Part shown: piece after piece, positions 3,161-35,396 of the stretch
Position numbering within the stretch: the first letter of the stretch is position 1
Layout: each line of letters opens with the position of its first letter
Assembly: GCA_018057705.1 (NCBI GenBank)
Contig: JAGPDF010000011.1
Location: forward strand, 21,985 to 85,984
DNA length: 64,000 nt
Direction: 5' to 3'
Source of the DNA: Thermoanaerobaculia bacterium
GTDB lineage: Bacteria > Acidobacteriota > Thermoanaerobaculia > Multivoradales > JAGPDF01
The notes under the pieces: generated by a model
Databases searched by the model: none
The model's input: the letters and a program-made list of their open reading frames with translations, nothing else
Told to the model about the DNA's origin: nothing
Position numbers and translations under genes: made by a program

Positions 3161-3848
3161 CGAAGAGGTGGAAGCGGTCGTCGTTGCGGATCGCCCCGAA
3201 CATCGTCGAGTAGGGCTCGATGCCGAATTCGCTGAACAGGAAGGCGCCGACGACCTCGGCGGAGAGGTCGCCACCAACAGCGCTCCAGGTCGCCGGCAGC
3301 TCGCGCTCGACGGTCCGGCCGCGAATCGTCAGGCGCAACCGGACGTTCCATCCGGCTGCGGGCTCCGCCGCGCGGCGCACGAGCCCGGCGACCTCGGCCC
3401 GGATCTCCGGGAACTTCGCGGCGTCGAGCTGGCTCGCGCCGAGCATCGCCGTCCGCACCTTCCGGCGGTCCGAGTCCCCGACCGGCGGCAGTTCGCCGGA
3501 GTGCATGCCGAGCTCGCGGAATCGCCCCTTCCAGGCCGCCCTTGCCGCCGGTGCGTCGATCTCGAGCCCTTCGGCCGCGACCGTGAAGCGGAAGCTCGTC
3601 GCCTCCGGCTGCGCGGGATCGAACCGGAGCTCGACCGTCGGCCGGGGGGCCACCACGAGGTGATCGTGCGCCAGCCCCGAGCCGATCCCCGCTTTGTGGG
3701 TGAGGACCGCGAACAGTGAGCGTTCGGCGTCGATCGCGTAGGCCTCTGCCGGCAGTGCCGCTGCGGGCGCCGGCCCGTGCATGGCGAGCGCGACCGAGAG
3801 GAGCGTCACCGACCAGCCGGCCCGCCAGGCAGAAGTGCTCTGTCTCAT
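3132..3848 (-). CDS. YceI-like periplasmic protein
   Basis: This is the C-terminal 238 aa of the 607-aa track ORF. ATG at 3848 is preceded by GGGAG. It has a signal peptide (..LLSVALAMHGPAPAAA) and a YceI-like body ('SLFAVLTHKAGIGSGLAHDH', 'RLTIRGRTVE'). The rest of the track ORF is a shadow frame. Confidence 0.65.
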   Translation of the reverse strand: MRQSTSAWRAGWSVTLLSVALAMHGPAPAAALPAEAYAIDAERSLFAVLTHKAGIGSGLAHDHLVVAPRPTVELRFDPAQPEATSFRFTVAAEGLEIDAPAARAAWKGRFRELGMHSGELPPVGDSDRRKVRTAMLGASQLDAAKFPEIRAEVAGLVRRAAEPAAGWNVRLRLTIRGRTVERELPATWSAVGGDLSAEVVGAFLFSEFGIEPYSTMFGAIRNDDRFHLFVSVVARRAP

Positions 3849-4018
3849 CGTGATGCTCCCGGGACCGCAGGGGAGAGAAGCTGCGATCACTATCCAGGAG
3901 GATAGACAGCCCGGGCGGCGCGCGGAACTGACCAAAGTGAGACGCCGCGCCCGGCAGCGGTCGGGGACCGGAGCCGAGCGCGGCGCAGGGAACGGCGACT
4001 CTTGTGGCCGGGAGGCCG

Positions 4019-4846
4019 TCAGTTCGATTCGTCGGATCCGTCCTCGTCCTCGATCTCGAGAACGATCGTCCGGGCGCCCGGCTCGCCGGTCACGAAGGTG
4101 CCCGCCTTCGGGGCCGTCTCGCGCAACGCCTCGAGGACCCTGGCGCGGGTCGCCTCGTCGAGCTCCTGGAACTTCGCCGAGGCCTGGAGGCGCGCGATCG
4201 TCGCCTCGACCGGGAGCGGCAGGGCCGGCAGCTCGCCGCCCTCGGTGGTGAAGGCGAAGGCGTGGGCGTCGCCGCCGCCGGCCGGAGTCCGCCGCATCAC
4301 GACCACCCTCCCGCCGTCGCCGTCGGCGCTTTCTGTGATCACCGCGCCGTTCTCGTCCACCGCCACCTTGTTGCGCAGGATCATGACGTTCGCCCCGCCC
4401 TCCCCGGCGTCGGCGCCATCGGCGCCATCGTGAACGATGATCCGCTTGTGGAACTGCGTCGTGCCGTCGGCGCTCGTCCACGAGCCGCCTTCGGGCTCGC
4501 CGGAGAAGTGGTCCATGAGGCGGATCTTCTTGCCGTCGAGGTCGATCTCGAAGCCCTGCTCGTCGCGGGTGACGACGACCGGCGTGCCGCTCTCGGTGGC
4601 GAGCGACCGGCTCTCGCCGACCGCCATCTCGTGAAGATTGGCGAGCTCGAGGCGCTCGGCGCTGCCGTCGTGGTCGAGGACCAGATTGATCTGGCTGCGA
4701 CGGACCTCGGCGGTCTCGTCCGAGGCCTCCGCGAGATCGACGCCCGCGGCTTCGGCCTCGCTCGCGGCCGCATAGGCGAGGCCGGCGGCCGTCGCCAGGA
4801 GAAGGGCGGTGAGGGAAGGGACCATCCAGCGATTTCGGTTGGGCAT
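4019..4846 (-). CDS. Secreted acidic hypothetical protein (no recognisable domain)
   Basis: ATG at 4846 is preceded by GAGGAG. The signal peptide is 'MPNRNRWMVPSLTALLLATAAGLAYA'. The protein is rich in D/E/G. It lies directly downstream of a canonical sigma-54 promoter. Confidence 0.7.
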   Translation of the reverse strand: MPNRNRWMVPSLTALLLATAAGLAYAAASEAEAAGVDLAEASDETAEVRRSQINLVLDHDGSAERLELANLHEMAVGESRSLATESGTPVVVTRDEQGFEIDLDGKKIRLMDHFSGEPEGGSWTSADGTTQFHKRIIVHDGADGADAGEGGANVMILRNKVAVDENGAVITESADGDGGRVVVMRRTPAGGGDAHAFAFTTEGGELPALPLPVEATIARLQASAKFQELDEATRARVLEALRETAPKAGTFVTGEPGARTIVLEIEDEDGSDESN

Positions 4847-4902
4847 CGGTTTCACTCCTCTGAAAGTTGTGCGGCTCCCTGCCGCAGTCACTCTTCTCAA
4901 AG

Positions 4903-4917
4903 GCAAGGACGGTGCCA
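4903..4917 (-). promoter_or_regulatory. Sigma-54 (-24/-12) promoter
   Basis: The minus strand reads TGGCACcgtccTTGC, with exact GG-N10-GC spacing and full TGGCAC/TTGC elements. The predicted TSS is near 4891, about 45 nt upstream of the ATG at 4846. It lies 71 nt downstream of the NtrC-type regulator gene. Confidence 0.7.
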
Positions 4918-4988
4918 GATGAAATCGCCGGCAATCTCGCAATACGCCTCCCCATTTGGGGAAGGTGCTGCTCTCTTCGGGAGCCGGC

Positions 4989-6365
4989 TCAGCTCTCCGC
5001 CGGCTCGGGCTCCGCCAGGCCGTGCTTCTCGAGCCGGTAGAGGAACGCCTTGTACGGCAGGTCGAGCAGACGCGCCGCGCGGGCGCGATTGCCGCCGGCG
5101 AGCTCGAGCGCCTGACGCAGCGCTTCGCGCTCGTGCGCCTCCCAGGAGAGTCCCTGCGCCGGCAGCCGGAAGCCGCCCTCGCCCTGCGGCCGGCCGGAGA
5201 GCTCGGGCGGCAGATCCTCGAGCTTCACCTCGCCGGCGTCGGCGAGGAGCGTCAGGCGTTCGACGACGTTGGCGAGCTCGCGGACGTTGCCCGGCCAGGC
5301 GTACTCGATCAGCGCCTTGCGCACCGCAGCGGGGAAGCGCGCCTGCGTGAGACCGTGGCGTCGCGCCGCGCGCGCCGCGAAATGCTCGGCGAGGAGGGGG
5401 ATGTCCTCACGGCGGTCGCGCAGCGGCGGCAGCGCCAGCGGCACCACGTTCAGACGGTAGAAGAGGTCCTGCCGGAAGCGCCCGGCGGCGATCTCGACGA
5501 GGAGATCGCGATTCGTCGCCGCGACCACCCGCACGTCCACCGCGATCTCACTGTTGCCGCCGACGCGGGTGATCCGGCCCTCCTGCAGGGCGCGCAGGAG
5601 CTTCGGCTGCAGGGCGATCGGCAGCTCTCCGATCTCGTCGAGGAAGAGCGTCCCGGAGTCGGCGGCCTCGAATCTGCCGGCGCGCGTGCGGTCGGCGCCG
5701 GTGAAGGCGCCGCGCTCGACGCCGAAGAACTCGGACTCGACCAGCCCCTCCGGAATCGCGGCGCAGTTGACTGCGACGAACGGCCGCGCGCGGCGCGGCG
5801 AGAGCTGGTGCAGCGCGCGCGCCGCGAGCTCCTTGCCGGTGCCACTCTCGCCGGTGAGGAGGATCGTCGCCTGGGTGCCGGCGAGGCGCTCGACGCGCGC
5901 GAAGAGGGTGTGCATCGCCGCCGAGCGCCCGATGAGGTCGACCAGTTGGTCGCGGTCGCCGATCTCCGCCGAGAGGCGGCGGTTCTCGCGCTCGAGCCGC
6001 CGCCGCGCGAGGGTGCGGTCGATCGCCAGCTTGAGCGCCTGCGCCTCGAACGGCTTCGCAAGGTAGTCGTCGGCGCCGCTGCGGATCGCCTCCACGGCGC
6101 GCGCGATCGTGCCGTACGCCGTGACCATGACGAAGCCGGCGTCGGGATGGTGGGCGCGCACCCGGGCGAGGAGCTCGCCGCCGTCGCCGTCCGGAAGGCG
6201 CCAGTCGGAGATCACGAGATCGACCGGGGCGCGCCCGAGCTCGCGGGTCGCCTCGGCGAGCGAGGCCGCGCAGGCGACGCTGTAGCCCTCCGCGGAGAGG
6301 AGCCCCGCAAGGAGGGTCCTCTGATCGGCCTCGTCCTCGACGACCAGCAGGCGGAAGTCGTTCAT
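4989..6365 (-). CDS. Sigma-54-dependent response regulator (NtrC family: REC, AAA+, Fis-type HTH)
   Basis: '[21 protein letters not shown]' is a REC domain. '[16 protein letters not shown]', 'GAFTGA' and '[14 protein letters not shown]' (GAFTGA loop) mark the AAA+ domain. '[26 protein letters not shown]' is the HTH. ATG at 6365 overlaps the kinase stop (ATGA). Confidence 0.9.
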
Positions 6366-7981
6366 CGTTCTGTCCGCGTCCATGGCGAGGTTCCATTCGA
6401 ACGGTCGCCGACACGGTCTCCGAGCTCGAGCGCGGCCCGGGTGCCGCGGGCGGTCCCTGCGGCGCGCGACTCGAGCCGCAGCTCGCCGGCGTACCGCCCG
6501 CTCACCAGACGGTGGGCGAGAAACAGGCCCATCCCGGAGCCGTGCGGCTTGGTGGTGACGTGGGGCTCGAAGAGACGGGCGCGGACCTCGTCGGGAAGAC
6601 CGCCGCCCTCGTCGTCGACCGTGATGCACACGCCGCCGGACTCGCCCGGCGCCACCTGGATCGTGACCTGCCCGCCCGGCGGGCTCGCCTCGACGGCATT
6701 CACCACGAGCGCCTGGAGCACCGCCTTGAGCTCCGCCGGCACACCCGCAACCACGGCCGGGACGGCCCGACGGCTGGCACCGGGCGCGGCACCTGGTGCG
6801 GCTTGGGCAGAAGCCTGCACGTCGATCCGTACCCGGCCGCCACCGTCCTGGAGCGCTTCGAGTGCCACCTCGCGGGCCAGCTGGGCGACGTCCACCGGCT
6901 CGGCCTGAGCCGAACCGGCCGAGGCCAGGGCGAGGAAGGAGCGCAGGGCGCCGTCCATGCGCCGGATCTGTCGCCGCGAGCCCTCGACGACCTCCGTTGG
7001 CGCGCCGACCTGCTCGATCGCGAGACCGAGGGCGTTCAGCGGGTTGCGCAGCGAGTGCGCGAGCCCGCGCGCCACCTCGCCCAGCTCGGAGAGCTGCTCG
7101 GCGGAGGCCAGCCGGCGGTTCTCGCGGTCGAGGTCGGCGAGACGCTGCGACATCCGGTTGAACGAGGCGATCGTGCGGCCGATCTCGTCGTTGCGCGGGC
7201 CCGGCTGGACCTCGACGGCAGCCCCGAGCTCGCCGCTTCCCAGGCGCTCGGCCGCCGCCGAAAGGCTCGCGAGGGGCCGGGTGAGCCGGTGGGCGACGAC
7301 CGCCGCCGCGAGCAGCCCCACCGCCAGCAGCGCCAGGTTCCCCAGCAGGAGCTGCGTACCGAAGCGGTCGAGCGTCGAGGCGACCTCGGCGTGCGGAATC
7401 GGAATCCTCCGCTTCATCTCCGGGCCGCGCACGAAGAGCACGTCGCGCTCCGCGTCGGTCTCGAGCACCATCTTGCGCAGCTGCATGTCGGGCGGCAAGA
7501 CAGCGTCGCCCGGCGCGGCGTCGGAGCCCTCTTCGGCAGCGTTGGCCCCCACCGCGCCGCCGGCCGCTGCCGGCGCCGGCCGCTGCAAGTGGATCTCGCG
7601 GCGCATCACGAAGTGCTGCGGCTCGCCGCCGGGCGCCGCCTCCGTCGTCCATTCGACGCCGGAAGGCTCGCCGGGCAGATCGCCTCCCGGTAGCGCGCCG
7701 ACAGTGCCCGGCCCATTCGTCGTCACCACGACGACATGCGTCGCCGTCCCGGGCCCGGGCTCGGCGGCTGCGCCCGCCGCGGTTCCCGCAGGGGCGGCAG
7801 GGCTCCGGCTCTCCGTGCGGTAGGAGAAGCCCGAGAGGATCTCCTCCCCGACCCGGAAGGCGACCGTGCGCACATCGTCGGTGACCGCCCGGGAAAGCGC
7901 GCGGAAGAGCAGCCACTGCCCGACGAGCAGCAGGCAGATCAGGCCACCGAGAAGCAGAAAGAGGCGTCGTCTGAGCGACAT
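6362..7981 (-). CDS. Sensor histidine kinase (TM, periplasmic region, HAMP, HisKA, HATPase)
   Basis: ATG at 7981 ('[21 protein letters not shown]'). A second TM precedes a HAMP-like '[21 protein letters not shown]'. The H-box is '[18 protein letters not shown]'. G-boxes are 'DDEGGGLP' and 'GSGMGLFLA'. Confidence 0.85.
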
Positions 7982-8120
7982 GGTCGCGGAGAATCTAGCA
8001 AGGGTCGTGCCTCTTTCGCCGCGGCCGGCAGCGGGCCGGCTTTCCGCCTGCGGCCCGCACCGCCACTTTTCGCCCGCGGACCGGATGTCCGCTTTCAAGA
8101 CGAAGCGGTAGACTTCGTCC

Positions 8121-9146
8121 ATGTCCCTGCGCTTCGGAGTGAACGGCCTCGGGCGGATCGGCCGCGCGCTCATCCGGATCGCGGCGACGCGGCCCGAGCT
8201 CGGCTTGGAGCTCGCCGCGGCCAACGATTCGGCAGACCCGAAGCAGCTCGCGCGCCTCCTTCGCCACGACACCGTGCATGGGGCCTTTCCGGTCGAGGTG
8301 GCTTCACGAGAGAGCTGCCTGCTTCTCGCCGGCCGGCCGGTGCCGCTCGGCCGGGCGCTCTCGCCGCTGGAGATCGACTGGCAGGAGCACGGCGTCGAGG
8401 TGGTGCTCGAGGCGACGGGGAAGTTCCGGCAACGCGACCTCGCCGCCGGGCATCTGCGCGATCCGGGGGGCTCCGTCCGGCAGGTCGTCGTCTCGGCGAC
8501 GATGCCCGATCCGGATGTCTCCGTCTGCCTCGGCATCAACGACCGCGATCTCGACCCGTCGTGGCAGCGCGTGATCTCGAACGCCTCGTGCACGACGAAC
8601 TGTCTGGCGCCGCTCCTGCTCGTGCTCGACCGGAGCTTCGGCGTCGAGCACGCGCTGATGAACACCGTCCACTGCGTCACCAACAGCCAGAACCTGGTCG
8701 ACAACGCGCACCCCGATCCGCGCCGCGCGCGCTCGGCGCTCGCCAACATCATCCCGACCACCTCGGACGCGATTCCCTCCATCGTCCAGGTCATGCCGGA
8801 GATGCGCGGCAAGGTCGAGGGGCTCGCGATGCGCGTGCCGGTGGTCGCGGGCTCGCTGGTCGATCTCACGGTGCGCCTCGCCCGCCCGGCCGCGCGCGAC
8901 GCCGTCGCCGACGCCTTTCGCGCCGCCGAGCAGGGAGCGCTCGCCGGTATCCTCGGCACCACCGACGAAGAGCTCGTCTCCTCCGACGTCATCGGCGACC
9001 GGCGCTCGGCGGTCGTCGATCTGCCTCTCCTTTCTCTCGCCGGCGACCGCCTGCTGCGCGTCGTCGCCTGGTACGACAACGAATGGGGCTACACCAACCG
9101 CTTAGCCGAGCTTCTCGCCCGGCTCGCGGCGCCACCCGCCCGATAG
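8121..9146 (+). CDS. gap: Glyceraldehyde-3-phosphate dehydrogenase
   Basis: '[11 protein letters not shown]', the catalytic '[12 protein letters not shown]' and 'WYDNEWGY'. Confidence 0.9.
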
Positions 9147-25350: not shown

Positions 25351-25731
25351 CTAGGGCTCGACCTCGAATCCGAGGCGAGTTGCGACCTCGCGCTGCCTGG
25401 CGTCGAGGGAGAGGAAGGTGATCTCGGCCTTGGGACTGAGCAGCAGCGCGCAGGCAAGATGCCAGGCGTCCGCGCCGCGCACCTGCCCGTAGGCGAAGAC
25501 CCGCCCGAGCTCCGGGCCGAGCGCGCGATCCGGCAGGATCCACCGCAGGTGGTGAAAGAGCTCTTCGCGCTCGACCACGATTCCCTCGCGCTGAACCACA
25601 GCCAGGAGCTCTGCTTCGAGGAGGTTGGACGACCAGATCGAATCGAAGCGCTCGAGCGCGAGAGCTCGCGCACCCGGCTCGGCGAGCAGGATTGCCGCGA
25701 GGCACGAGGTGTCGACGTAGGCGATGCTCAA
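25351..25731 (-). CDS. vapC: PIN-domain toxin (VapC family)
   Basis: 'IAYVDTSCLAAIL', 'SNLLEAEL' and 'RGADAWHLACAL'. ATGA overlap with the upstream antitoxin gene. Confidence 0.8.
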   Translation of the reverse strand: MSIAYVDTSCLAAILLAEPGARALALERFDSIWSSNLLEAELLAVVQREGIVVEREELFHHLRWILPDRALGPELGRVFAYGQVRGADAWHLACALLLSPKAEITFLSLDARQREVATRLGFEVEP

Positions 25732-26000
25732 TCGCGATCGTCGAGGAAGCGCTGCAGGGCTCCTGGGCGATGCGCAATCGCTTTCCAGGTTCCCTTCTTG
25801 GCGGGCGCCGGGCTCAAGACACCTTCCGCCGTGAGCCGTTCGATGCGCTCCTCGAGCGTTTCCATTCGCTTTTCGATCGGCCGGATCTCGGCTACCGGCT
25901 GGCCATGAAAGGTAATCACCACCCGCCCCCCCTGCCGCACCTTGCGCAGCAGTTCGCTGAACTTCGCCTTCGCTTCATAGGTTGAATAGACGGATTCCAT
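25728..26000 (-). CDS. Phd/YefM-family type II antitoxin
   Basis: 'YSTYEAKAKFSELLRKVRQGGRVVITFHGQPVAEIRP' is the canonical Phd/YefM N-terminal fold signature. Confidence 0.8.
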   Translation of the reverse strand: MESVYSTYEAKAKFSELLRKVRQGGRVVITFHGQPVAEIRPIEKRMETLEERIERLTAEGVLSPAPAKKGTWKAIAHRPGALQRFLDDRD

Positions 26001-26190: not shown

Positions 26191-26542
26191 GGGGGCGCAC
26201 CGGGTTCGACGGGGAACAGTGCGGTTCGAGGGTTGCGCATCGGGTTTGCACCCGTAAAACGGCAAGTTATACCTGCCAACGACAACTACGCTCTCGCGGC
26301 TTAATTGACCGTGACGTTCCAGCCATGGGCCATTGTCCACGGCACGGGCTGGGGCGACGCTAAAGTGGACTGAACGCTGAGGTTGGTTCCGCTCCTCAGC
26401 GGGATCGTCAAATCGGAACTGGCGCTTGCGTAGGAGGCCTTCTGCATTGCGCAAGGGCGATGACCCTAAGTGAAGGCTATGTGCGTAGATACTTTCGGGA
26501 CGCGTTTCTCGGACGTGGGTTCAATTCCCACCGCCTCCACCA
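26191..26542 (+). ncRNA. ssrA: tmRNA (SsrA)
   Basis: The 5' end is GGGGGCGCACCGGGTTCGACGGGG. The 3' end is GGACGTGGGTTCAATTCCCACCGCCTCCACCA. The acceptor stem has a G3:U pair. The tag reading frame GCC AAC GAC AAC TAC GCT CTC GCG GCT TAA encodes ANDNYALAA (26275..26304). Confidence 0.95.
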
Positions 26543-26629: not shown

Positions 26630-28363
26630 GTGAAGACGACCCCCTTCGCCGCAGAGCGTCGGCAGAGCTCACTCCTTGCCGTCTGCCGCCTGCGGATCCC
26701 CTTCATCCAGTTGTTCGTCGCGGCGGCATTCGCCGGCCTGCTCGCCGGCTGCACCGGCAACCCGCCAGCCGCCACGACTTCGACGGCCGCAGCGACCGCA
26801 GCGGCGCCGGCCGCGACCGGCTTCACGATCCTCCAGATCAACGACACCTACAAGATCGAGGGGCTGCGGGCCGGCGCCGAGGGCGGCATGAGCCGGGTGC
26901 GCACCCTGCGCCGGGAGCTCGAGGGCGAAGGCCGGCCGGTGCTCGTCCTGCACGCCGGCGACTTCCTCTTCCCCTCGGTGATGAGCAAGTACCTCCAGGG
27001 CGTGCCGATGATCGAGGCGCTCAACCTGCTCGACGGCTCCGCAGCGTTCGACGAGCTTCTCTTCGTCACCCCCGGCAACCACGAGTTCGATCATCCGGAG
27101 CCGCGGGTGCTCTTCGACCGCATTGCGCAGTCGCAATTCGCCTGGATCTCGTCGAACATCGCGGTCGCCGAGAGCGCCGGCACTGCGCTCAGCCCGATGA
27201 ACAGCCTCTTCCCCAACGTGAAGGACCATGTCGTTCTCGAGCTCGGCGGCATCCGGGTGGGGATCTTCGGTCTGACGTTGAACGACCAGCGCCGCCCCTG
27301 GGTCGACTACGGCTACGAGCTCGAGGCGCGCCGGGCCACCGTCGCGCGGGTGCTCGACGACCTCGAGCGAGAAGGCGCCGAGTTCGTCGTCGGTCTCACC
27401 CACCAGGAGATCGGCGAAGACGAACGGCTGGCGAAGGAGTTCGGCGACCGCATCGACTGGATCGTCGGCGGCCATGAACACGTCGCGCAGTTTCTCCGCG
27501 TCGGCGCGACGACGATCACGAAGGCCGACGCCGACGCCAAGACCGCCTATCGCATCGACGTCCGGCGGGCCGGCGGCGCGATTCGCGGCGCGAGCGCGCT
27601 GCTCGAGCTCGACACCGCGGTGGCGGTCGATCCCGACATGGTGCGCGAGGTCGCCACCTCCCTCGCGACCCTGGCACGCACCGTCGAGGAGAAGACCGGC
27701 CGCAAGCTCCTCGACGTCGTCGCGACGACCGAACACCTCCTCGAGGGAACCGAGCCGGCGATCCGCGGCCGCGAGACGGCGCTGGGCGACCTCCTCTGCG
27801 ACGTTCTGCGCGAGCGCCTCGGTACCGACCTCGCGTTCGTCAACGGCGGCGCGATCCGCGTCAACGACGACGTACCCGCGGGCGGGAATCTCCGCGTCTA
27901 CGAGCTCGAGGGGATCTTCTACTACGACGACAAGCCGGTCATCTTCGAGCTCACCGGGCGCGAGCTTCTGGCGCTGCTCGAGAAGTCGGTCTCCCAGGCC
28001 ACCCTGGGACACGGTCGCTTCCTGCAGATCTCCGGCCTGCGCTTTCGCTATCACGTCGCCGCCGACGGCACGACGCGGGTCGACGCCGCCGACGTCGCGG
28101 TGCGCCCCAACGGCGAAGCCGGCTTCGCGCCGCTCGACCTCGAGCGCCGCTACCGCACGGCGACGCTCGACTACACCTGGCGCAACGGCTATCGCGACGG
28201 CTATCCGCTGTTCTCCGCCGGTGACGGCAAGTCGAGTCCGGCGCTCCTCGAAGAGCCGCAGATATCCTGGCGCCAGCTCACCGAAGAGGCGCTCGCCGCG
28301 CTTCCCGGGCTGCGCATCACCACCGACGTCGACGGCCGGATCGTGCGCATCGAAGAGCCCTAG
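26630..28363 (+). CDS. Bifunctional metallophosphatase/5'-nucleotidase lipoprotein
   Basis: GTG at 26630 lies 7 nt after GAGGAG; the track start at 26579 lies inside the ssrA terminator. The lipobox is 'LLAGC'. 'ILQINDTYK', 'HAGDFLFPS' and 'TPGNHEFD' are present, plus a C-terminal 5'-nucleotidase domain. Confidence 0.85.
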   Translation: MKTTPFAAERRQSSLLAVCRLRIPFIQLFVAAAFAGLLAGCTGNPPAATTSTAAATAAAPAATGFTILQINDTYKIEGLRAGAEGGMSRVRTLRRELEGEGRPVLVLHAGDFLFPSVMSKYLQGVPMIEALNLLDGSAAFDELLFVTPGNHEFDHPEPRVLFDRIAQSQFAWISSNIAVAESAGTALSPMNSLFPNVKDHVVLELGGIRVGIFGLTLNDQRRPWVDYGYELEARRATVARVLDDLEREGAEFVVGLTHQEIGEDERLAKEFGDRIDWIVGGHEHVAQFLRVGATTITKADADAKTAYRIDVRRAGGAIRGASALLELDTAVAVDPDMVREVATSLATLARTVEEKTGRKLLDVVATTEHLLEGTEPAIRGRETALGDLLCDVLRERLGTDLAFVNGGAIRVNDDVPAGGNLRVYELEGIFYYDDKPVIFELTGRELLALLEKSVSQATLGHGRFLQISGLRFRYHVAADGTTRVDAADVAVRPNGEAGFAPLDLERRYRTATLDYTWRNGYRDGYPLFSAGDGKSSPALLEEPQISWRQLTEEALAALPGLRITTDVDGRIVRIEEP

Positions 28364-28463
28364 CGCGCAGTTAAGGTGAAGCGCCGCGCCTCCCTTTCTG
28401 GATCTCAGCGTCGGTGCCGGCCGAAGCCTCGCTCTCGCGCGCCGTTCCTTTGCTGGTGACTAC

Positions 28464-28718
28464 CTAGTGCCGAGAGTCCCGCGATAGAACCGGATCATTC
28501 CCAGGAGGGACGGTGTCGGAGTCGCGAAACTGACCGTCTCTGCCCTGAATCCTGACCTCGCCTCCGCCGAGATTGCCGACAATTTCCTTGGCTCGCACTT
28601 CCGCCTTGCGCTGCGTGTCGAAGACTGCGCTGGCTCTGTCGGCGTGGGGCTTCTTTACAGCCCACCCGTCACTGTGTGTTACTACAAACCGGTTGTTCGT
28701 CCCGTTCTTCTTAGCCAT
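28464..28718 (-). CDS. DUF2188-family small protein
   Basis: 'VVTHSDGWAVKKPHADRASAVFDTQRKAEVRAKEI' matches the DUF2188 pattern (..GWxVK..g..ras..f.tk.eA...a). It lies in a low-GC block. Confidence 0.65.
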   Translation of the reverse strand: MAKKNGTNNRFVVTHSDGWAVKKPHADRASAVFDTQRKAEVRAKEIVGNLGGGEVRIQGRDGQFRDSDTVPPGNDPVLSRDSRH

Positions 28719-28746
28719 CGTTTCCTCCCTTTTCTACTGAACTGCG

Positions 28747-28941
28747 TTACTTTGCACCCAAGGCTGCTTGGGCATCAGTTAAGAGGGCATCGCAACACGC
28801 GGTGACCTCGATGCTGAGGTTGTCGAGCGAGGCCCCTTGCTCTAGTCGGATGGACGGCTTCTTCCCGTGCGTCGCGCAGGTCATGCCATCCAACTGTTGC
28901 TTGAGCTTCGCTTCGGTTTCCCGAATCAACGCCTTCTCCAA
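28747..28941 (-). CDS. Small hypothetical protein (possibly the 3' part of a frameshifted ~80-aa gene starting at 28997)
   Basis: 64-aa ORF with a TTG start. A well-placed ATG at 28997 opens 'MISVEVNGKKVALSQ..' in the frame one nucleotide away and stops after 23 codons. Confidence 0.35.
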   Translation of the reverse strand: MEKALIRETEAKLKQQLDGMTCATHGKKPSIRLEQGASLDNLSIEVTACCDALLTDAQAALGAK

Positions 28942-29025
28942 CTCGACGCCATCTGGCTGAGAGCCACCTTCTTGCCGTTGACTTCAACACTGATCATGTT
29001 GTCCGCCTTTCTGGCCTAAAAGGTC

Positions 29026-29304
29026 TCAAGCTGCCCTTCGGACGTTGACGTTGATCCAATCCCAAGCTTCCTGGGACATCCAGCCGGCGCTTCGATTGAC
29101 CACTTCGATGATCAGGACGGTGTCGCTCTTGTCGATGTGGGGTGAAATCCGATCCCAGAGCTGCTCGGGGGTCTCGAAGGTCGCGATCAGCCAGGACGAC
29201 TTGAGGAAGTGCCACCAGTTCGGCGAGTTCTCCAATTCGCTGATCAGCCCTGCATAGTTCTGTCCGGGACGGTTGAGGTCATAGTTGACGGAATAGACGC
29301 GCAT
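29026..29304 (-). CDS. Hypothetical 92-aa protein (beta-alpha-beta-beta-alpha-beta pattern reminiscent of Cas2/VapD-like ferredoxin fold; unverified)
   Basis: 'MRVYSVNYDLNRPGQNYAGLISELEN..WWHFLKSSWLIAT..PEQLWDRISPHI..DTVLIIEV'. It is the first gene of an operon divergent from the XRE gene. Confidence 0.55.
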   Translation of the reverse strand: MRVYSVNYDLNRPGQNYAGLISELENSPNWWHFLKSSWLIATFETPEQLWDRISPHIDKSDTVLIIEVVNRSAGWMSQEAWDWINVNVRRAA

Positions 29305-29405
29305 TTCTTCTCCTTGATTCCTTCAGTCGAGTCGGCCTCATTGCCGCTGCGACCTTTTCCGCCATTATAGCACAGATGTCAACAGGGCTGTCGTGCGCTG
29401 GCCGT

Positions 29406-29474
29406 CAGTAATACTGACTGTCAGGCATCTGGTGGTGAGGGGGTTGTTTATTGGGCTGACAGTGGGCAATACTG
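29406..29474. promoter_or_regulatory. Divergent promoter/operator region with three related dyads
   Basis: CAGTAaTACTG (29406-29416) and CTGACtGTCAG (29414-29424) are palindromes. CAGTgggcaaTACTG (29460-29474) carries the same CAGT/TACTG arms with a wider spacer. All lie between divergent genes. Confidence 0.45.
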
Positions 29475-29480
29475 TTTCGG

Positions 29481-29858
29481 ATGGATTTCTACGAGCGCCT
29501 CGGGGCTCTGCTAAGTGCCTCCCGGGATGAGCGAGGGATCACGCAAGCCAAGCTCAGCTCGGAGATTGGCCTCAGCCGGTCCTCTATTGCGAACATAGAA
29601 GCGGGCGCACAGGGAGTTTCTGTGGAGCTTCTGGTTCGCATCGCTAAGGCCTTGAACGTCGCGCCAGCGACGCTCATACCCCCACCGGAAGCCGTCGACA
29701 CGGTCGCACAACTCCGCGAGTCGATTCGCGCTGCTTCGGTTGAGGTCTCCGAAGGTCTTATGGACCAGATCGAAAGGCACCTAAAGCCACGGGGAGAGTC
29801 GAGTGCTAAGAAGACCAGAACGAGAAGCAGCAGCGCTCCTAGTTCAGTTGGGGATTGA
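29481..29858 (+). CDS. XRE-family (HTH_3) transcriptional regulator
   Basis: 'ITQAKLSSEIGLSRSSIANIEAGAQGVSVELLVRIAKALNV'. Confidence 0.85.
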   Translation: MDFYERLGALLSASRDERGITQAKLSSEIGLSRSSIANIEAGAQGVSVELLVRIAKALNVAPATLIPPPEAVDTVAQLRESIRAASVEVSEGLMDQIERHLKPRGESSAKKTRTRSSSAPSSVGD

Positions 29859-30330
29859 GGGTCCGGCCGTTGACGTTGAGGGTGTCGCGAAGTCGTTGCG
29901 AATCAAGGTCGTTCGTGACGTGCTCGAAGATGGCACCTCGGCAATGCTCATTCGACAAGGCGCCGATGCGCTAATCATGGTCGATTCCGCCCAGACGAAG
30001 GCGCGGCAGCGCTTTAGCATCGCTCACGAGATCGGGCATTTTCAGCTGCATCGAGAGCTCGTTTTCGTCGACAAGCAGCCGGCGCGAGTCAACTTCCGCA
30101 ATGCTGATTCCTCACTTGCTCAGGATCCCCGAGAGATCGAGGCGAATGGCTTCGCTGCAGCACTTCTAATGCCGGCCGCCTGGGTCTACGCCGCAGTTGA
30201 GAAGCTACGCACTTCCAAGCGCCGACCAAGTGAAGAGCAGCTCGTAATTTCTCTCGCCACTACCTTCGCTGTCAGCGAACCTGCGATCCGATACCGCCTC
30301 CTTAACCTCGGCCTGATCTCCTCTTTTTGA
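29803..30330 (+). CDS. ImmA/IrrE-family zinc metallopeptidase
   Basis: 'FSIAHEIGHFQLH' (HEXXH) and 'EIEANGFAAALLMP'. GTG at 29803 lies after GGGGAGAG. It overlaps the XRE gene by 56 nt. Confidence 0.8.
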   Translation: MLRRPEREAAALLVQLGIEGPAVDVEGVAKSLRIKVVRDVLEDGTSAMLIRQGADALIMVDSAQTKARQRFSIAHEIGHFQLHRELVFVDKQPARVNFRNADSSLAQDPREIEANGFAAALLMPAAWVYAAVEKLRTSKRRPSEEQLVISLATTFAVSEPAIRYRLLNLGLISSF

Positions 30331-30450
30331 GTTCTTCTCGAAAGGGGTCGCTCGACCCGACCTGGCCTAGGAACGCTTGCATTCCCTGAAGGCGCTACTT
30401 CGAGAGGCTTCCAGGGGTCGGAGGGTTGCCAACGAGTAAGGCGAGCTCCG

Positions 30451-31515
30451 CTAGAAAAGCGCCGCGATCGCGGTATCGAAGGGGCGGTGCAGCACGCCCT
30501 CCTCGGTCACGATCGCCGTGATGAGGTCCGCCGGGGTGACGTCGAAGGCGAGATTGAAACCCGACGTTCCGACGGGCGCAATACGCCGACCGGCGAGATC
30601 GGTGACCTCGAGGCCGGCGCGTTCCTCGATCGGGATCTCGGCACCGGAGGGGATCCGGGGATCGAAGGTCGAGAGCGGCGCCGCGACATAGAACGGCACC
30701 TTGTGGCGGTGCGCGAGGACGGCGACGGTGTAGGTGCCGATCTTGTTCGCCGCATCGCCGTTGGCGGCGATCCGGTCGGCGCCGACGATGACCCGCTCGA
30801 CGAGGCCGCGGCTCATCAGCGCCCCGACCATCGAGTCGGTGACCAGGCGATGCGGAATCCCCAGCCGCAGCAGCTCCCATGCGGTGAGGCGAGCCCCCTG
30901 GAGCAGCGGCCGCGTCTCGTCCACCCAGACCGCGGCGAGACGTCCGGCGCGGTGCGCCGCGGCGATGACGCCGACCGCGGTGCCGATGCCGCCGGTCGCC
31001 AGAGCTCCGGCGTTGCAGTGCGTCAGCACCCGGTCGCCGGGGGCGAAGAGCGCGGCGCCGTGCTCCGCCATGCGCCGGTTGCGGTCGATGTCGTCGTCGT
31101 GCAGGGCCCGCGCCCAGTCGAGGAGCCGCGCCGCCAGCTCGACCGGCGGGCGCTCCCCTCCGGCTCGCAGGAGCTCGAAAGTCTCTTCGCCCTGCTCCAG
31201 CGCCCAGCGCAGGTTGACGGCCGTCGGTCGCGTCTCGCCCAGGATACGGACGGCATTCGCGACCCGGCGACTCGGCTCGGGCTCGGGATCGTCGGGGTCG
31301 AGGAGGGCCACCACGAGACCGTAGGCCGCCGCGATGCCGATCGCCGGTGCGCCGCGGACCACGAGCCGCCGGATGGCGTCGGCGACGCTAAAGACGCTGG
31401 AGCAACGGATCCACTCCTCGTCGTGCGGCAGGCGCGTCTGATCGAGCAGTTCGAGGGCGCCTCCGGAAAAGCGCACCGGTCGAAATTCGGCGGCTGGTTG
31501 CAGGTCATCCGTCAT
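30451..31515 (-). CDS. mtnA: S-methyl-5-thioribose-1-phosphate isomerase
   Basis: 'LELLDQTRLPHDEEWI', 'VRGAPAIGIAAAYG' and 'VIVGADRIAANGDAANKIGTY'. Confidence 0.85.
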   Translation of the reverse strand: MTDDLQPAAEFRPVRFSGGALELLDQTRLPHDEEWIRCSSVFSVADAIRRLVVRGAPAIGIAAAYGLVVALLDPDDPEPEPSRRVANAVRILGETRPTAVNLRWALEQGEETFELLRAGGERPPVELAARLLDWARALHDDDIDRNRRMAEHGAALFAPGDRVLTHCNAGALATGGIGTAVGVIAAAHRAGRLAAVWVDETRPLLQGARLTAWELLRLGIPHRLVTDSMVGALMSRGLVERVIVGADRIAANGDAANKIGTYTVAVLAHRHKVPFYVAAPLSTFDPRIPSGAEIPIEERAGLEVTDLAGRRIAPVGTSGFNLAFDVTPADLITAIVTEEGVLHRPFDTAIAALF

Positions 31516-32895: not shown

Positions 32896-33594
32896 CTAAA
32901 TTACGCTCTGGAGCTGCGCTGCGGCCCGAGGCGCTTCCCTGGACTTGCGGTGCCTCGGCGTCTCGGCAAGTTCCTTGACGAAGTTGACGAAGTGCCTGTG
33001 CTTGAGTCTCCTTAGCTCGCCAAGAAAGACGAGCTGTGGCTTTCCGAGGTACTTCGGCTGATTAGCCGTCCACCTTAGGCTGCAATAGCCCGCTCTTAGT
33101 CGATGGCCAATCCAGCGGCAGTCGACAATTTGACGACCACCATCCTTATTAGCGAGCAGCAGAGAGCCAATGAGACTGGACCACCTGGCCTGAGGCACAA
33201 GTGCCGCACCATACAGGTGCCAAGACTGGCCGGAAAAAAAGAGCGCTCCGCTAGAACATTGGAAATCAGCGAGTATCTCGACAATAGTGGACCAGCCATC
33301 CTCAATTGTCGGAGTCTTGAAATCGACCATGGGAATGTGAAAGATCTCGACCCTCTCCCCGTGACGAATCAGGACCTGGGAGTGCATTGCGAGGTCGCGC
33401 CCCCTCGAAAGACTCGCTCGTAGCTTGCAGTACTCGTCAGCAAGGTGTTCTCGCCTTAGCACGAAGATCTCCCTCGAGTCCGCCAGAACTCCTGGCTGGT
33501 ACTCATAGCTGCTGAAGTTAACTTCAGCGCGCTCAGGTATCAATTCCTCGAGCATCTTCGGGATCACGTCCTCGGGCGTGGCGGCAAGTTTCAT
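32896..33594 (-). CDS. Hypothetical 232-aa protein, translationally coupled partner of dgt
   Basis: ATG at 33594 lies 4 nt after the dgt stop, with AAGGTGA 5 nt upstream. The block is low in GC. I found no domain I can name. Confidence 0.6.
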   Translation of the reverse strand: MKLAATPEDVIPKMLEELIPERAEVNFSSYEYQPGVLADSREIFVLRREHLADEYCKLRASLSRGRDLAMHSQVLIRHGERVEIFHIPMVDFKTPTIEDGWSTIVEILADFQCSSGALFFSGQSWHLYGAALVPQARWSSLIGSLLLANKDGGRQIVDCRWIGHRLRAGYCSLRWTANQPKYLGKPQLVFLGELRRLKHRHFVNFVKELAETPRHRKSREAPRAAAQLQSVI

Positions 33595-33598
33595 GTAG

Positions 33599-35038
33599 TC
33601 ACCTTACCGAGGGAAATCCTCGAACGACATGGTAGGTCTTGACCGCGTGGCTGTCAGTCATGCCAGAGACATAGTCCAGAAGCAACTGGAGTCTGAATAT
33701 CGGCTCGAGGTCCGGTTCAGCATCGACGCAATCGAGAAATGCTAAGGCGTGCTTTCGCGAAAGTAGCTCGACCAATCTCGATTCGAGTGCAAACTCGGAG
33801 GGCTTCTTTCCGGATCTCTTCCTTTCCAGCAAGGCCCGAAAATCCATTGAGGCCAGGCTCAGCAACGGACTTAGTGCGTCGAGTAGCCCCGTTACAATCT
33901 GGAATCCGCTGAGTTCAACTCCTACAGCTTCTGCAGACACAAAGATGTTCTTCCGCGCAAATTGCTTGAGGCCGTCCAGCGCTGCGCTAGATTCCTTGTC
34001 CAGATCTAAGAGCGGGTGTTGAAGCTCTCCATCTAGAATGGCGTCGTGCTGTTCACAGAAGATCTCGGCGGCTCGATTGACGAGGTGTCGCGTCAAATTC
34101 GTCCGAAAAACTACGAATTCTGCGTACTTGCAATGGCGCTTCTTGCTATCAAGCTTCTTCCAGTGCTTTCGCCTAGTGGTTCGATCCAGCGCCTTCTTGA
34201 AGGCTTCTTCGCTGACGATCCTCTTCTCGAGTGCGTCCTCGATGTCCGAGAGGCAGTAGGCGATGTCGTCCGCGGCCTCCATTAGGAAGACGAGTGGATG
34301 CCGTTGGCCTGGAAGTCCTGCATTGGCATCCCACTTGAGACCAAGTCTTTTCCAAATCTGCTCTAGAGTCTTCGACTCTGATTCGAAGTACCCGACTTTT
34401 CCCCGAAATCCAAGTCTATTCTTCGTTGTCGCTGGCGTTGGCGTTAGGTACTTCACCATGGAAGCCAGAAGCGACGCCGTTAGGTTCAGGCCGGAGGAAT
34501 CGCTCAGCCACTGGAGGCGGGATACGATTCGAAAGCCCTGGGCATTCCCATCAAAATACTTGAAGCCCGGAAGAAATCGTGCCACATGCTCCTGAGCTAC
34601 ACCTTGTTTCTTCCAAGAGCTACAGAGACTCTGCTCATTGTCGGCAATCCACTTCTGAATCGCATATTCGCCGAGGTGTCCAAATGGTGGGTTCCCGATG
34701 TCATGCAGCAAACAGGCGTTCGAGACCGTCTTTGTGAAAGGAAGGCGGAGATTCTCTTCGGCTGTTCCGCTAGAGACCAAGTTGTCAAAGACCTTACCCG
34801 CGATCAACTCGCCAAACATCGCGACCTCTAGCGTGTGCGTGAGCCTCGTCCGGACTGCGGCGTTCGTTTCTAGTGAGAAGACCTGCGCTTTGGTTTGAAG
34901 GCGGCGAAACGCGGTACATGTGACTACGCGCGCGTGGTCACTTAGTGTTTCTTCGATGAGATTTCTGCCTGCCTGAGTAGACTGACGGATTCGATCGGGC
35001 GAGAGAAAGTACCTCGAGCGCTCGCTCTTCTCCGCCAT
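33599..35038 (-). CDS. dgt: Deoxyguanosinetriphosphate triphosphohydrolase (Dgt type, HD domain)
   Basis: It aligns by eye with E. coli Dgt over the whole length. Shared blocks are 'AFRRLQTKAQVF..NAAVRTRLTHTLEV', 'LLHDIGNPPFGH', 'FDGNAQGFR', 'MEAADDIAYCLSDIEDALEKRI' and 'DYVSGMTDSHA'. ATG at 35038 matches the E. coli N-terminal length. The track ORF extends to GTG at 35095. Confidence 0.85.
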   Translation of the reverse strand: MAEKSERSRYFLSPDRIRQSTQAGRNLIEETLSDHARVVTCTAFRRLQTKAQVFSLETNAAVRTRLTHTLEVAMFGELIAGKVFDNLVSSGTAEENLRLPFTKTVSNACLLHDIGNPPFGHLGEYAIQKWIADNEQSLCSSWKKQGVAQEHVARFLPGFKYFDGNAQGFRIVSRLQWLSDSSGLNLTASLLASMVKYLTPTPATTKNRLGFRGKVGYFESESKTLEQIWKRLGLKWDANAGLPGQRHPLVFLMEAADDIAYCLSDIEDALEKRIVSEEAFKKALDRTTRRKHWKKLDSKKRHCKYAEFVVFRTNLTRHLVNRAAEIFCEQHDAILDGELQHPLLDLDKESSAALDGLKQFARKNIFVSAEAVGVELSGFQIVTGLLDALSPLLSLASMDFRALLERKRSGKKPSEFALESRLVELLSRKHALAFLDCVDAEPDLEPIFRLQLLLDYVSGMTDSHAVKTYHVVRGFPSVR

Positions 35039-35396
35039 GACCTGACTGCGCTCTGGTCTCTTAGTGGGGCTCTTCCTGGCGCGCCTCGTGGCCACTTGAA
35101 GCGCGATTATACGCCTTTGCGGCCTCCGTCTTCGGAGGGATACGTGGCTCTTGGATCTAGTCCACTCCAGCCTCGGCGCCGAAGGGGCCTCTCCTCTTCG
35201 GAGGCTGGCTCCCAGCAGGCGTTGATGACGCTGGTGTGAGCGCCCCTGCCCAGGCGACAGTGGCTCTTCATTGTAGGCCGAGGGCGAGGAACTCGCAGGA
35301 TTGAAGGCGCGAATCGCCCGATGCAGTCAACGATGCTCCGCCACTCCAGTCGAGCCCGCCAAGGACTGATGGCGAGGGTTCCAGCTTCCGCTCGCT

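Follow-up and report, generated by a model that had tools for sequence, protein, structure and literature searches.

We analysed a window of 64,000 nucleotides (nt) on contig JAGPDF010000011.1 (positions 21,985 to 85,984), which belongs to a metagenome-assembled genome (MAG) of a Thermoanaerobaculia bacterium from wastewater/activated sludge (assembly GCA_018057705.1), and focused on a cassette of low guanine-plus-cytosine (GC) content between a 5'-nucleotidase gene and mtnA. The cassette is a horizontally acquired, self-contained unit of five genes, one of them dead, and is among the smallest of the repressor-peptidase switches of this kind. With moderate confidence we favour the reading that it acts as a stand-alone switch of the ImmR/ImmA type (CapH/CapP-like), responsive to DNA damage or phage, which would derepress a small operon led by a putative nuclease of the Cas2 superfamily, p92. 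This reading is built on the gene content of the cassette, its status as an insertion, the fold of p92, the family-wide linkage of p92 to damage-type regulators and transcription in situ. The features of the cassette are as follows (aa, amino acids).

28364..30450, unstranded: inserted low-GC cassette, from the stop codon of the 5'-nucleotidase gene (28361-28363) to the stop codon of mtnA (30451-30453, minus strand)
29481..29858, plus strand: XRE-family repressor, 125 aa; Pfam HTH_3 2e-13, PADLOC capH 1.3e-13
29803..30330, plus strand: short zinc metallopeptidase of the M78 (ImmA/IrrE/CapP) type, 175 aa; Pfam PF06114 2.5e-21, GTG start
29026..29304, minus strand: p92, a 92-aa open reading frame (ORF), lead cargo gene; phrog_1090 6e-26, Shine-Dalgarno sequence AAGGAG at 29311-29316
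28747..28997, minus strand: middle gene, broken member of an 83-aa family; one nucleotide is missing after codon 15 (between 28953 and 28952)
28464..28718, minus strand: DUF2188 protein, 84 aa, last cargo gene; Pfam PF09954 1e-18, 67.6 bits against a cut-off of 22
29305..29480, unstranded: divergent control region of 176 nt between the p92 and XRE starts
29404..29424, unstranded: candidate operator O1, a perfect 7-1-7 palindrome GTCAGTAATACTGAC (29404-29418) overlapped by CTGACtGTCAG (29414-29424)
29456..29474, unstranded: candidate operator O2 CTGACAGTgggcAATACTG, imperfectly related to O1 and placed 7 nt upstream of the start codon of the XRE gene

Insertion and transcription of the cassette

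An earlier reading of the DNA alone (the original prediction) had placed a low-GC block of about 2 kb between the 5'-nucleotidase gene and mtnA. The GC content is indeed 0.55-0.59 over 28400-30400, against 0.67-0.75 in the flanks and a contig background of about 70%, and the true extent of the block is 28364-30450. In three close relatives (L097, L098 and L099, whose mtnA falls into the same 90%-identity protein cluster), the two flanking genes are only 28 nt apart, and thus the block is an insertion. Aligned with these empty-site relatives, the extra sequence of about 2.09 kb falls precisely into the gap from one stop codon to the other. The cassette and the 10 kb to its left and right contain no called integrase, excisionase or phage gene, as was expected from the earlier proposal of a stand-alone module, and no convincing terminal direct or inverted repeats were found at the cassette ends. 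A 10-nt repeat AAGCGCCGCG is present near both ends; it was rejected as a terminal repeat, being within chance at this GC content. The cassette is base-for-base identical in seven independent assemblies and in contigs of four DNA runs from four studies, with sampling dates from 2015 to 2025.

Transcription was assessed with cDNA contigs of four wastewater metatranscriptomes (X22, X23, X24 and X25). RNA contigs cover p92 in all four of them and the DUF2188 gene in X23. The middle gene is covered in X22, in X25 and, in part, in X24. Transcripts over each of the small ORFs, whose lack of expression would have counted against the original prediction, were thus found. The XRE gene is covered in X22 and X23 and the M78 gene in X24 and X25. 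The 5'-nucleotidase gene on the left flank has no RNA contig in any of the four metatranscriptomes; coverage of the island genes but not of this adjacent gene speaks against carry-over of DNA. Since the contigs have low depth and no strand information, they demonstrate transcription and not regulation.

The regulator pair and the divergent spacer

The XRE protein consists of an N-terminal helix-turn-helix (HTH) domain and a C-terminal extension of about 58 aa, and its closest sequence relatives in the PDB are C-proteins and XRE HTH proteins. Its gene has no preceding Shine-Dalgarno sequence and is possibly leaderless, to judge from the sequence. It overlaps the M78 gene by 56 nt; the pair, this overlap and the 176-nt spacer are just as originally described. 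The GTG start of the M78 gene is supported by the N-terminus of the product, which aligns with homologs such as L029 and with the PADLOC capP profile from position 4. The peptidase core carries HEIGH at residues 75-79 and the motif E..N.FA..LLMP, namely HExxH plus a downstream Glu. The capP profile aligns to it with an E-value of 2.4e-31, spanning 4-154 of the 242 profile positions. Among PDB sequences, CapP (7t5t) matches best, in the peptidase core only (80-145 of 291).

CapP proteins are about 280-290 aa long with a central HTH and a C-terminal GAF domain, and many of them, though not all, have a cysteine-switch loop; CapP and IrrE sense single-stranded DNA (ssDNA) in the groove between the peptidase and the C-terminal GAF domain (PMC13228613). 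The peptidase of the cassette has no GAF domain, no central HTH/GAF region for the ssDNA groove and no cysteine. At 175 aa and without GAF domain or cysteine, it is an ImmA-type short peptidase in architecture. The M78 proteins encoded near p92 relatives are similarly 168-198 aa long where they are paired with an XRE gene, and 250-266 aa where paired with a different partner.

Three palindromic dyads had been pointed out in the divergent spacer. The first two, CAGTAaTACTG (29406-29416) and CTGACtGTCAG (29414-29424), are exact and overlapping, and jointly contain the perfect 7-1-7 palindrome (GTCAGTA-A-TACTGAC), which is unique in the window even with up to three mismatches allowed. The third (29460-29474, within O2) is only a partial relative with a spacing unlike that of O1, 79% complementary over 19 nt to 29406-29424. 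The equivalent spacers of several relatives contain strong or conserved palindromes as well, 10-1-10 in L045 and 8-0-8 in both L020 and L078, and GAATCA-N4-TGATTC is common to those of L029, L049 and L055, which represent three genera. A scan for consensus promoters and terminators gave nothing useful in the spacer. By direct reading, its minus strand contains TTGACA (29382-29377) and a perfect extended -10 element TGcTATAAT (29372-29364). The dyads are candidate operators, and we infer from their sequence that the XRE protein may bind them.

Fold and family of p92

p92 matches phrog_1090 end to end. There is no Pfam or NCBIfam model for it, and the protein of the window reaches no Pfam threshold. 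A word-index homology search with p92 alone found seven near-identical proteins, and the family became visible only by a full HMMER scan, which gave 3,714 representative clusters (50% identity) at E<=1e-3. Domain fusions comprise one with a DDE transposase and are otherwise uninformative.

The AlphaFold2 model of p92, made with 113 sequences, has a mean predicted local distance difference test score (pLDDT) of 92.1 and a predicted template modelling score (pTM) of 0.83. Its elements are strand 2-8, helix 18-25, strands 29-34 and 37-42, helix 46-56, strand 63-68 and helix 78-87. Foldseek ranks BPSL1038 (7vxr) first, with template modelling (TM) scores of 0.70/0.75, followed by many Cas2 proteins (TM 0.5-0.6) and then GhoS. 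BPSL1038 is a CRISPR-independent endonuclease for double-stranded DNA with the site D11(X20)SST (PMC10491678). In p92, D9 is invariant just after beta1, and S36 is invariant in the beta2-beta3 turn, where the consensus reads Ser-Thr. The model contains the C-terminal helix and places D9 and S35-S36 at positions equivalent to those of BPSL1038, with different spacing.

At the sequence level, the Pfam model CRISPR_Cas2 (PF09827) is matched by 25 of the 113 p92 relatives at E<=0.01, and P0193, which is 65% identical to p92, scores 28 bits against the PF09827 cut-off of 23.8. When the p92 profile was compared with PDB sequences, the best match was again Cas2, marginally (E 0.44). No CRISPR-like array was found in the 64-kb window, and no cas1 or other cas gene among the neighbours. 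The predicted structure and the family-level Pfam matches support an assignment of p92 as a stand-alone protein of the Cas2/VapD superfamily, in agreement with the earlier guess of a Cas2/VapD-like protein. Its most likely role would be that of a small homodimeric nuclease or nucleic-acid-binding effector.

The middle gene and the DUF2188 gene

A frameshift had been suspected in the small ORF that follows p92, and the suspicion was right. The gene belongs to a family of 81-83-aa proteins with 106 matches. Its closest ortholog, P0367, is intact at 83 aa, 69% identical, and located directly after a p92 ortholog in the same order. Compared with P0367, the copy in the window has lost one G after codon 15. 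What remains is a 23-aa ORF in another frame (ATG at 28997) and a stretch of 60-64 aa (TTG at 28929 or 28941), the longer form being 28747-28941 on the minus strand. The lesion is identical in all seven assemblies, in the four DNA runs and in an RNA contig that spans it, and thus the frameshift is real and fixed. Programmed frameshifting was considered and rejected, as CTCAGCCAGATGG contains no slippery heptamer. We read the gene, from its sequence, as a fixed pseudogene or the source of a truncated product.

The middle protein of the window and one subfamily share CxxH...CC, possibly a zinc site, and most relatives do not have it. Its AlphaFold2 model has a pLDDT of 87 and no credible fold match in the PDB (best E 1.8, probability at most 0.35), and its single PHROG match is not significant. 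The DUF2188 protein matches the PADLOC candidate PDC-S16 (3e-19) and phrog_3220 (1e-11); no solved structural relative of it was found.

Genomic contexts of p92 relatives

The context of p92 was compared over 80 species-level loci. An M78 peptidase lies within about 2 kb of p92 in 43 of them. The layout is window-like (XRE plus M78, or XRE next to DUF2188 or to genes of CBASS, the antiphage signalling system based on cyclic oligonucleotides) at 18 loci, where only two of 142 large flanking ORFs are integrases and the flanks are mostly housekeeping genes. The original prediction had raised the case that homologous blocks would always sit in prophages or integrative and conjugative elements (ICEs). 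This is not so, and the module is usually found outside them.

Two other regulator types accompany p92. Firstly, 23 loci, all from Alphaproteobacteria or unclassified Proteobacteria/Pseudomonadota MAGs, encode an M78 protein of about 260 aa together with a 150-aa protein of no recognised family, and 19 of these also encode a 194-aa protein with a weak match to sigma-70 region 2 (E 5e-4). In these p150-type loci (L017, L019, L022 and L065, at about 4000-8700, and 19 more), p92 is divergent from the M78-containing set. Four of them have CBASS genes after p92, namely a patatin gene in all four and a CD-NTase gene in three. The triad may represent a protease/anti-sigma/sigma route to CBASS activation, of which we found no description in the papers that we read. 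Secondly, in nine loci the small genes mid81-sm47-p92-p86 face, in divergent orientation, genes for a WYL regulator and an N6/N4 DNA methyltransferase (L034, L036, L039, L043, L044, L046, L050, L051 and L067, at about 2500-6600). The regulator there is about 296 aa and the methyltransferase 630-725 aa; the small genes encode proteins of 81 aa, 46-49 aa (Ala/Lys-rich), p92 and 85 aa, none of the four with a Pfam family.

Over all 80 loci, the recurrent small partners are p86 (28 loci), sm47 (18), mid81 (10) and DUF2188 (7). In ten loci p92 is directly upstream of CBASS genes identified by Pfam, which are patatin phospholipase plus CD-NTase in seven, patatin in two and CD-NTase in one. Time after time, p92 is thus the first regulated gene that lies downstream of sensors of the damage type. 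In Acinetobacter (L107-L111, 5001-5267), the ribonucleotide reductase genes nrdA and nrdB have between them a p92 homolog of 88 aa (P0263, found on many contigs), and a 42-aa ORF comes after it.

p92 also occurs in phages, with 65 matching records, mostly of Staphylococcus. In temperate phages it is a lone gene of the early region, on the strand opposite to its neighbours in the records of Staphylococcus B122 and Bacillus phi4B1. A scan of IMG/VR gave seven p92 loci, none with an adjacent XRE/M78 pair. In the Klebsiella P2-like phage ST437-OXA245phi4.1 (L093, 730-4270), the p92 homolog, annotated as 'SinR' or 'CRISPR-associated endoribonuclease' in sister records, is beside the portal gene and next to three unannotated genes on the opposite strand (227, 359 and 301 aa) and a DinI-like gene; the surroundings resemble a hot spot for phage morons or defence genes. 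The closest named relative of p92 (60% identical) is encoded in a Thermoanaerobaculia MAG (L013, 1253-1810) and followed by a DUF1883 protein. It is located between relaxase-like and tyrosine-recombinase-like (integrase) genes, and thus is on a mobile element.

Proposed mechanism and alternatives

In the switch that we favour, a dimer of the XRE repressor would occupy the palindromic sites of the spacer in the unstressed cell and keep the operon of p92, the broken middle gene and DUF2188 low, and the repressor probably regulates its own gene as well. DNA damage or phage replication would activate the co-transcribed M78 peptidase, by analogy with ImmA/ImmR, IrrE/DdrO and CapP/CapH. The activated peptidase, if it behaves like its family, would cut the C-terminal part of the XRE repressor, so that the operon is derepressed. 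The peptidase of the cassette does not have the GAF/ssDNA groove that CapP and IrrE use for sensing. The induced p92 may limit the replication of phages or mobile elements, or may kill or arrest the damaged cell, and DUF2188 might be its partner or modulator.

Several points weigh against this switch. With regard to the effector, the Foldseek E-values of p92 are modest (about 1e-2), the protein of the window itself matches neither PF09827 nor any other Pfam family, and the cargo families have no experimentally studied member. With regard to the regulation, the peptidase is devoid of the GAF domain and cysteine switch that explain the activation of CapP by ssDNA, so that the proposed trigger is a putative one. 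Arms of at least 7 nt arise in 2.9% of dinucleotide-preserving shuffles of the spacer, a chance probability of about 0.03 for the palindrome. Moreover, the sole perfect sigma70-type -10 (29364-29372, minus strand) is clear of the palindrome, whose distance upstream of the predicted start is about 47-61 nt; with the palindrome upstream of the -10 and not over it, repression by simple steric hindrance is not obvious. The RNA evidence consists of the unstranded, low-depth contigs described above. Finally, 22 of the 80 p92 loci have no recognised partner, and with its middle gene a pseudogene the cassette may be in decay.

The alternative that survives best keeps the same switch and changes its output to a function in DNA damage or replication stress, in which p92 would process or bind nucleic-acid intermediates or modulate RecA/SOS. 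DinI, a small damage-induced protein, is a model for such modulation. All three types of p92-linked regulators (M78 with XRE, M78 with the sigma-like triad, and WYL) are DNA-damage-type sensors, and the place of p92 within the nrdA-nrdB locus of Acinetobacter points in the same direction. The many solitary p92 genes speak against a strongly toxic effector, and the island transcripts are detectable in bulk communities. However, p92 stands directly upstream of CBASS genes in ten loci and at moron or defence hot spots of temperate phages, both the cassette and the p92 family are horizontally mobile, and DUF2188 is listed by PADLOC as a candidate for defence and has a published link to defence (bioRxiv 10.1101/2022.04.27.489752). 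We regard this alternative as unlikely, though as the likeliest of the three.

The cassette may instead be the decayed immunity region of a prophage or ICE, that is, an ImmR/ImmA lysogeny switch that has lost the remainder of its element except for some early or moron genes. PHROG families are matched by p92 as well as by DUF2188, and Bacillus phage phi4B1 has an integrase, an M78 gene, an HTH gene and p92 all within 4 kb. The integrase and relaxase-like genes beside p92 in L013 and the pseudogene state of the middle gene would also fit such a remnant. On the other hand, the empty-site relatives reveal a precise insertion of 2.09 kb with nothing else derived from a phage, and integrase and structural genes are absent within 10 kb on either side. 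The compact layout recurs in many unrelated genomes between housekeeping genes, with the two integrases in 142 ORFs mentioned above, and the cassette was identical across the samples of 2015-2025. Decay from a larger element is thus quite improbable.

The XRE-M78 pair could also be a type II toxin-antitoxin pair that stabilises the islet, with the small genes as unrelated passengers. Xre-COG2856 pairs are predicted toxin-antitoxin systems from comparative genomics, and the two genes of the cassette overlap and are co-transcribed, as in such pairs. Although the NCBIfam model 'spr1629 family repressor/antitoxin' matches the peptidase (1.3e-12, 47.6 bits, far under the cut-off of 335) and CapP was named 'toxin' by its PDB depositors, we consider this very doubtful, since characterised ImmA, IrrE and CapP are repressor-cleaving peptidases and not toxins (PMC13228613), and M78 is tightly tied to p92-type cargo across the family (43 of 80 loci), which points to the cargo as the regulated target.

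Other features of the window

An Rfam scan of 25.5-31 kb found only tmRNA. The tmRNA gene (ssrA, 26191-26542, plus strand; RF00023, 155.7 bits) is just upstream of the 5'-nucleotidase gene. Genes for tmRNA are common integration sites of islands, and the p92 cassette is not adjacent to this one. By the tmRNA gene lies a toxin-antitoxin pair (25351-26000, minus strand) of a PhdYefM antitoxin (90 aa) and a PIN-domain VapC (126 aa), which L097 and L098 have as well. Another island of low GC content (about 0.53; 32896-35095, minus strand) encodes a primase-polymerase like those of the archaeo-eukaryotic primase (AEP) superfamily (232 aa, Pfam PF24387 1.6e-31) and then an HD protein of 498 aa that matches the PADLOC dGTPase defence model (5.6e-68). 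This island is also present in L097, which is without the p92 cassette, and the HD gene is called there as two pieces.

Implications

The CapH/CapP, ImmR/ImmA and IrrE/DdrO switches are a general means of converting DNA damage into gene expression, and their outputs reveal how the cell responds. The five-gene cassette would be a clean system for studying the function of the DUF2188 operons already in the literature. The main addition of the present analysis is the placement of the lead hypothetical gene in a Cas2-like family that is very large, has no name, is independent of CRISPR and tracks damage-sensing regulators across phyla and phages.

A wider proposal is tentative, and we put it forward as possible rather than probable. 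With at least 3,700 clusters, the family of p92 (phrog_1090) might form a branch of the Cas2 superfamily that is widespread and independent of CRISPR, and might be a common first output of at least three switches that sense DNA damage or phages. It would then be a new nuclease effector induced by damage, or an immune co-factor, and also a candidate for a relative of the ancestor of CRISPR Cas2. As a member of such a branch, p92 may act alone, with p86, sm47, the 83-aa protein or DUF2188, or directly upstream of a CBASS operon. If p92 is truly a nuclease or immune factor that can be induced, a function would be gained for thousands of 'hypothetical' genes, and there would be a data point on the origin of Cas2.

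Comparison with known systems

The layout of the cassette is less novel than the original prediction implied. Lau et al. (2022) list in their Fig. 6F a system of 'CapP-like, CapH-like, two hypothetical proteins, DUF2188'; they define these systems by a CapH/CapP pair that lies upstream of the operon it regulates and is encoded on the other strand, and cite earlier comparative work that ties DUF2188 to operons of HTH and metallopeptidase genes (bioRxiv 10.1101/2022.04.27.489752). Their system of Extensimonas perlucida HX2-24 has the same listed gene content, order and divergent layout as ours, in which XRE and M78 are on the plus strand and the cargo is on the minus strand across the 176-nt spacer. 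This likeness is one of listed content; its two hypothetical proteins may belong to the p92 and 83-aa families, and the second hypothetical gene is frameshifted in the window. Because the same layout is listed by Lau et al. (2022), that of the cassette is of a known, uncharacterised kind.

With CapH/CapP of CBASS (E. coli MS115-1, Thauera sp. K11), the cassette shares an XRE-type repressor and an M78 zinc peptidase divergent from an operon, whereas its peptidase has 175 aa without GAF domain and cysteine, and its cargo is not CBASS. ImmR/ImmA of ICEBs1 and of phi105-type phages likewise combine a peptidase-only M78 protein (about 170 aa) with an adjoining co-directional XRE gene and a divergent promoter. 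ImmA cleaves ImmR after DNA damage or another signal. This pair governs the excision and transfer genes of an integrating element, but the cassette has no integrase, excisionase or transfer gene. DdrO/IrrE (PprI) of Deinococcus is of the same family type, an M78 peptidase with an XRE repressor, and IrrE cleaves DdrO after DNA damage to derepress its targets. IrrE has a GAF domain and acts on a dispersed regulon through a shared motif, whereas the operator candidate of the cassette is found once in the window, next to the one operon.

As for the effector, p92 and BPSL1038 have in common an Asp after beta1, a Ser-Ser/Thr in the beta2-beta3 turn and the lack of a CRISPR link, but there is no detectable sequence similarity between them, and the spacing from Asp to Ser is 26 in p92 and 20 in BPSL1038. 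Like Cas2 of CRISPR adaptation, p92 has a Cas2-like model and an invariant D9, but it comes with neither cas1 nor a CRISPR array. The nine of 80 p92 loci that are divergent from a WYL regulator parallel the way in which CapW and CapH/CapP stand in for one another upstream of defence operons; this likeness to CapW/BrxR concerns the cargo family only, as the window has no WYL gene. What is new here, compared with these systems, is the Cas2/BPSL1038-like nature and the size of the family of the lead gene, and the coupling of p92 to three types of regulators, to CBASS and to nrdAB. New as well are the proof of insertion by empty sites, the fixed frameshift and the transcripts in situ.

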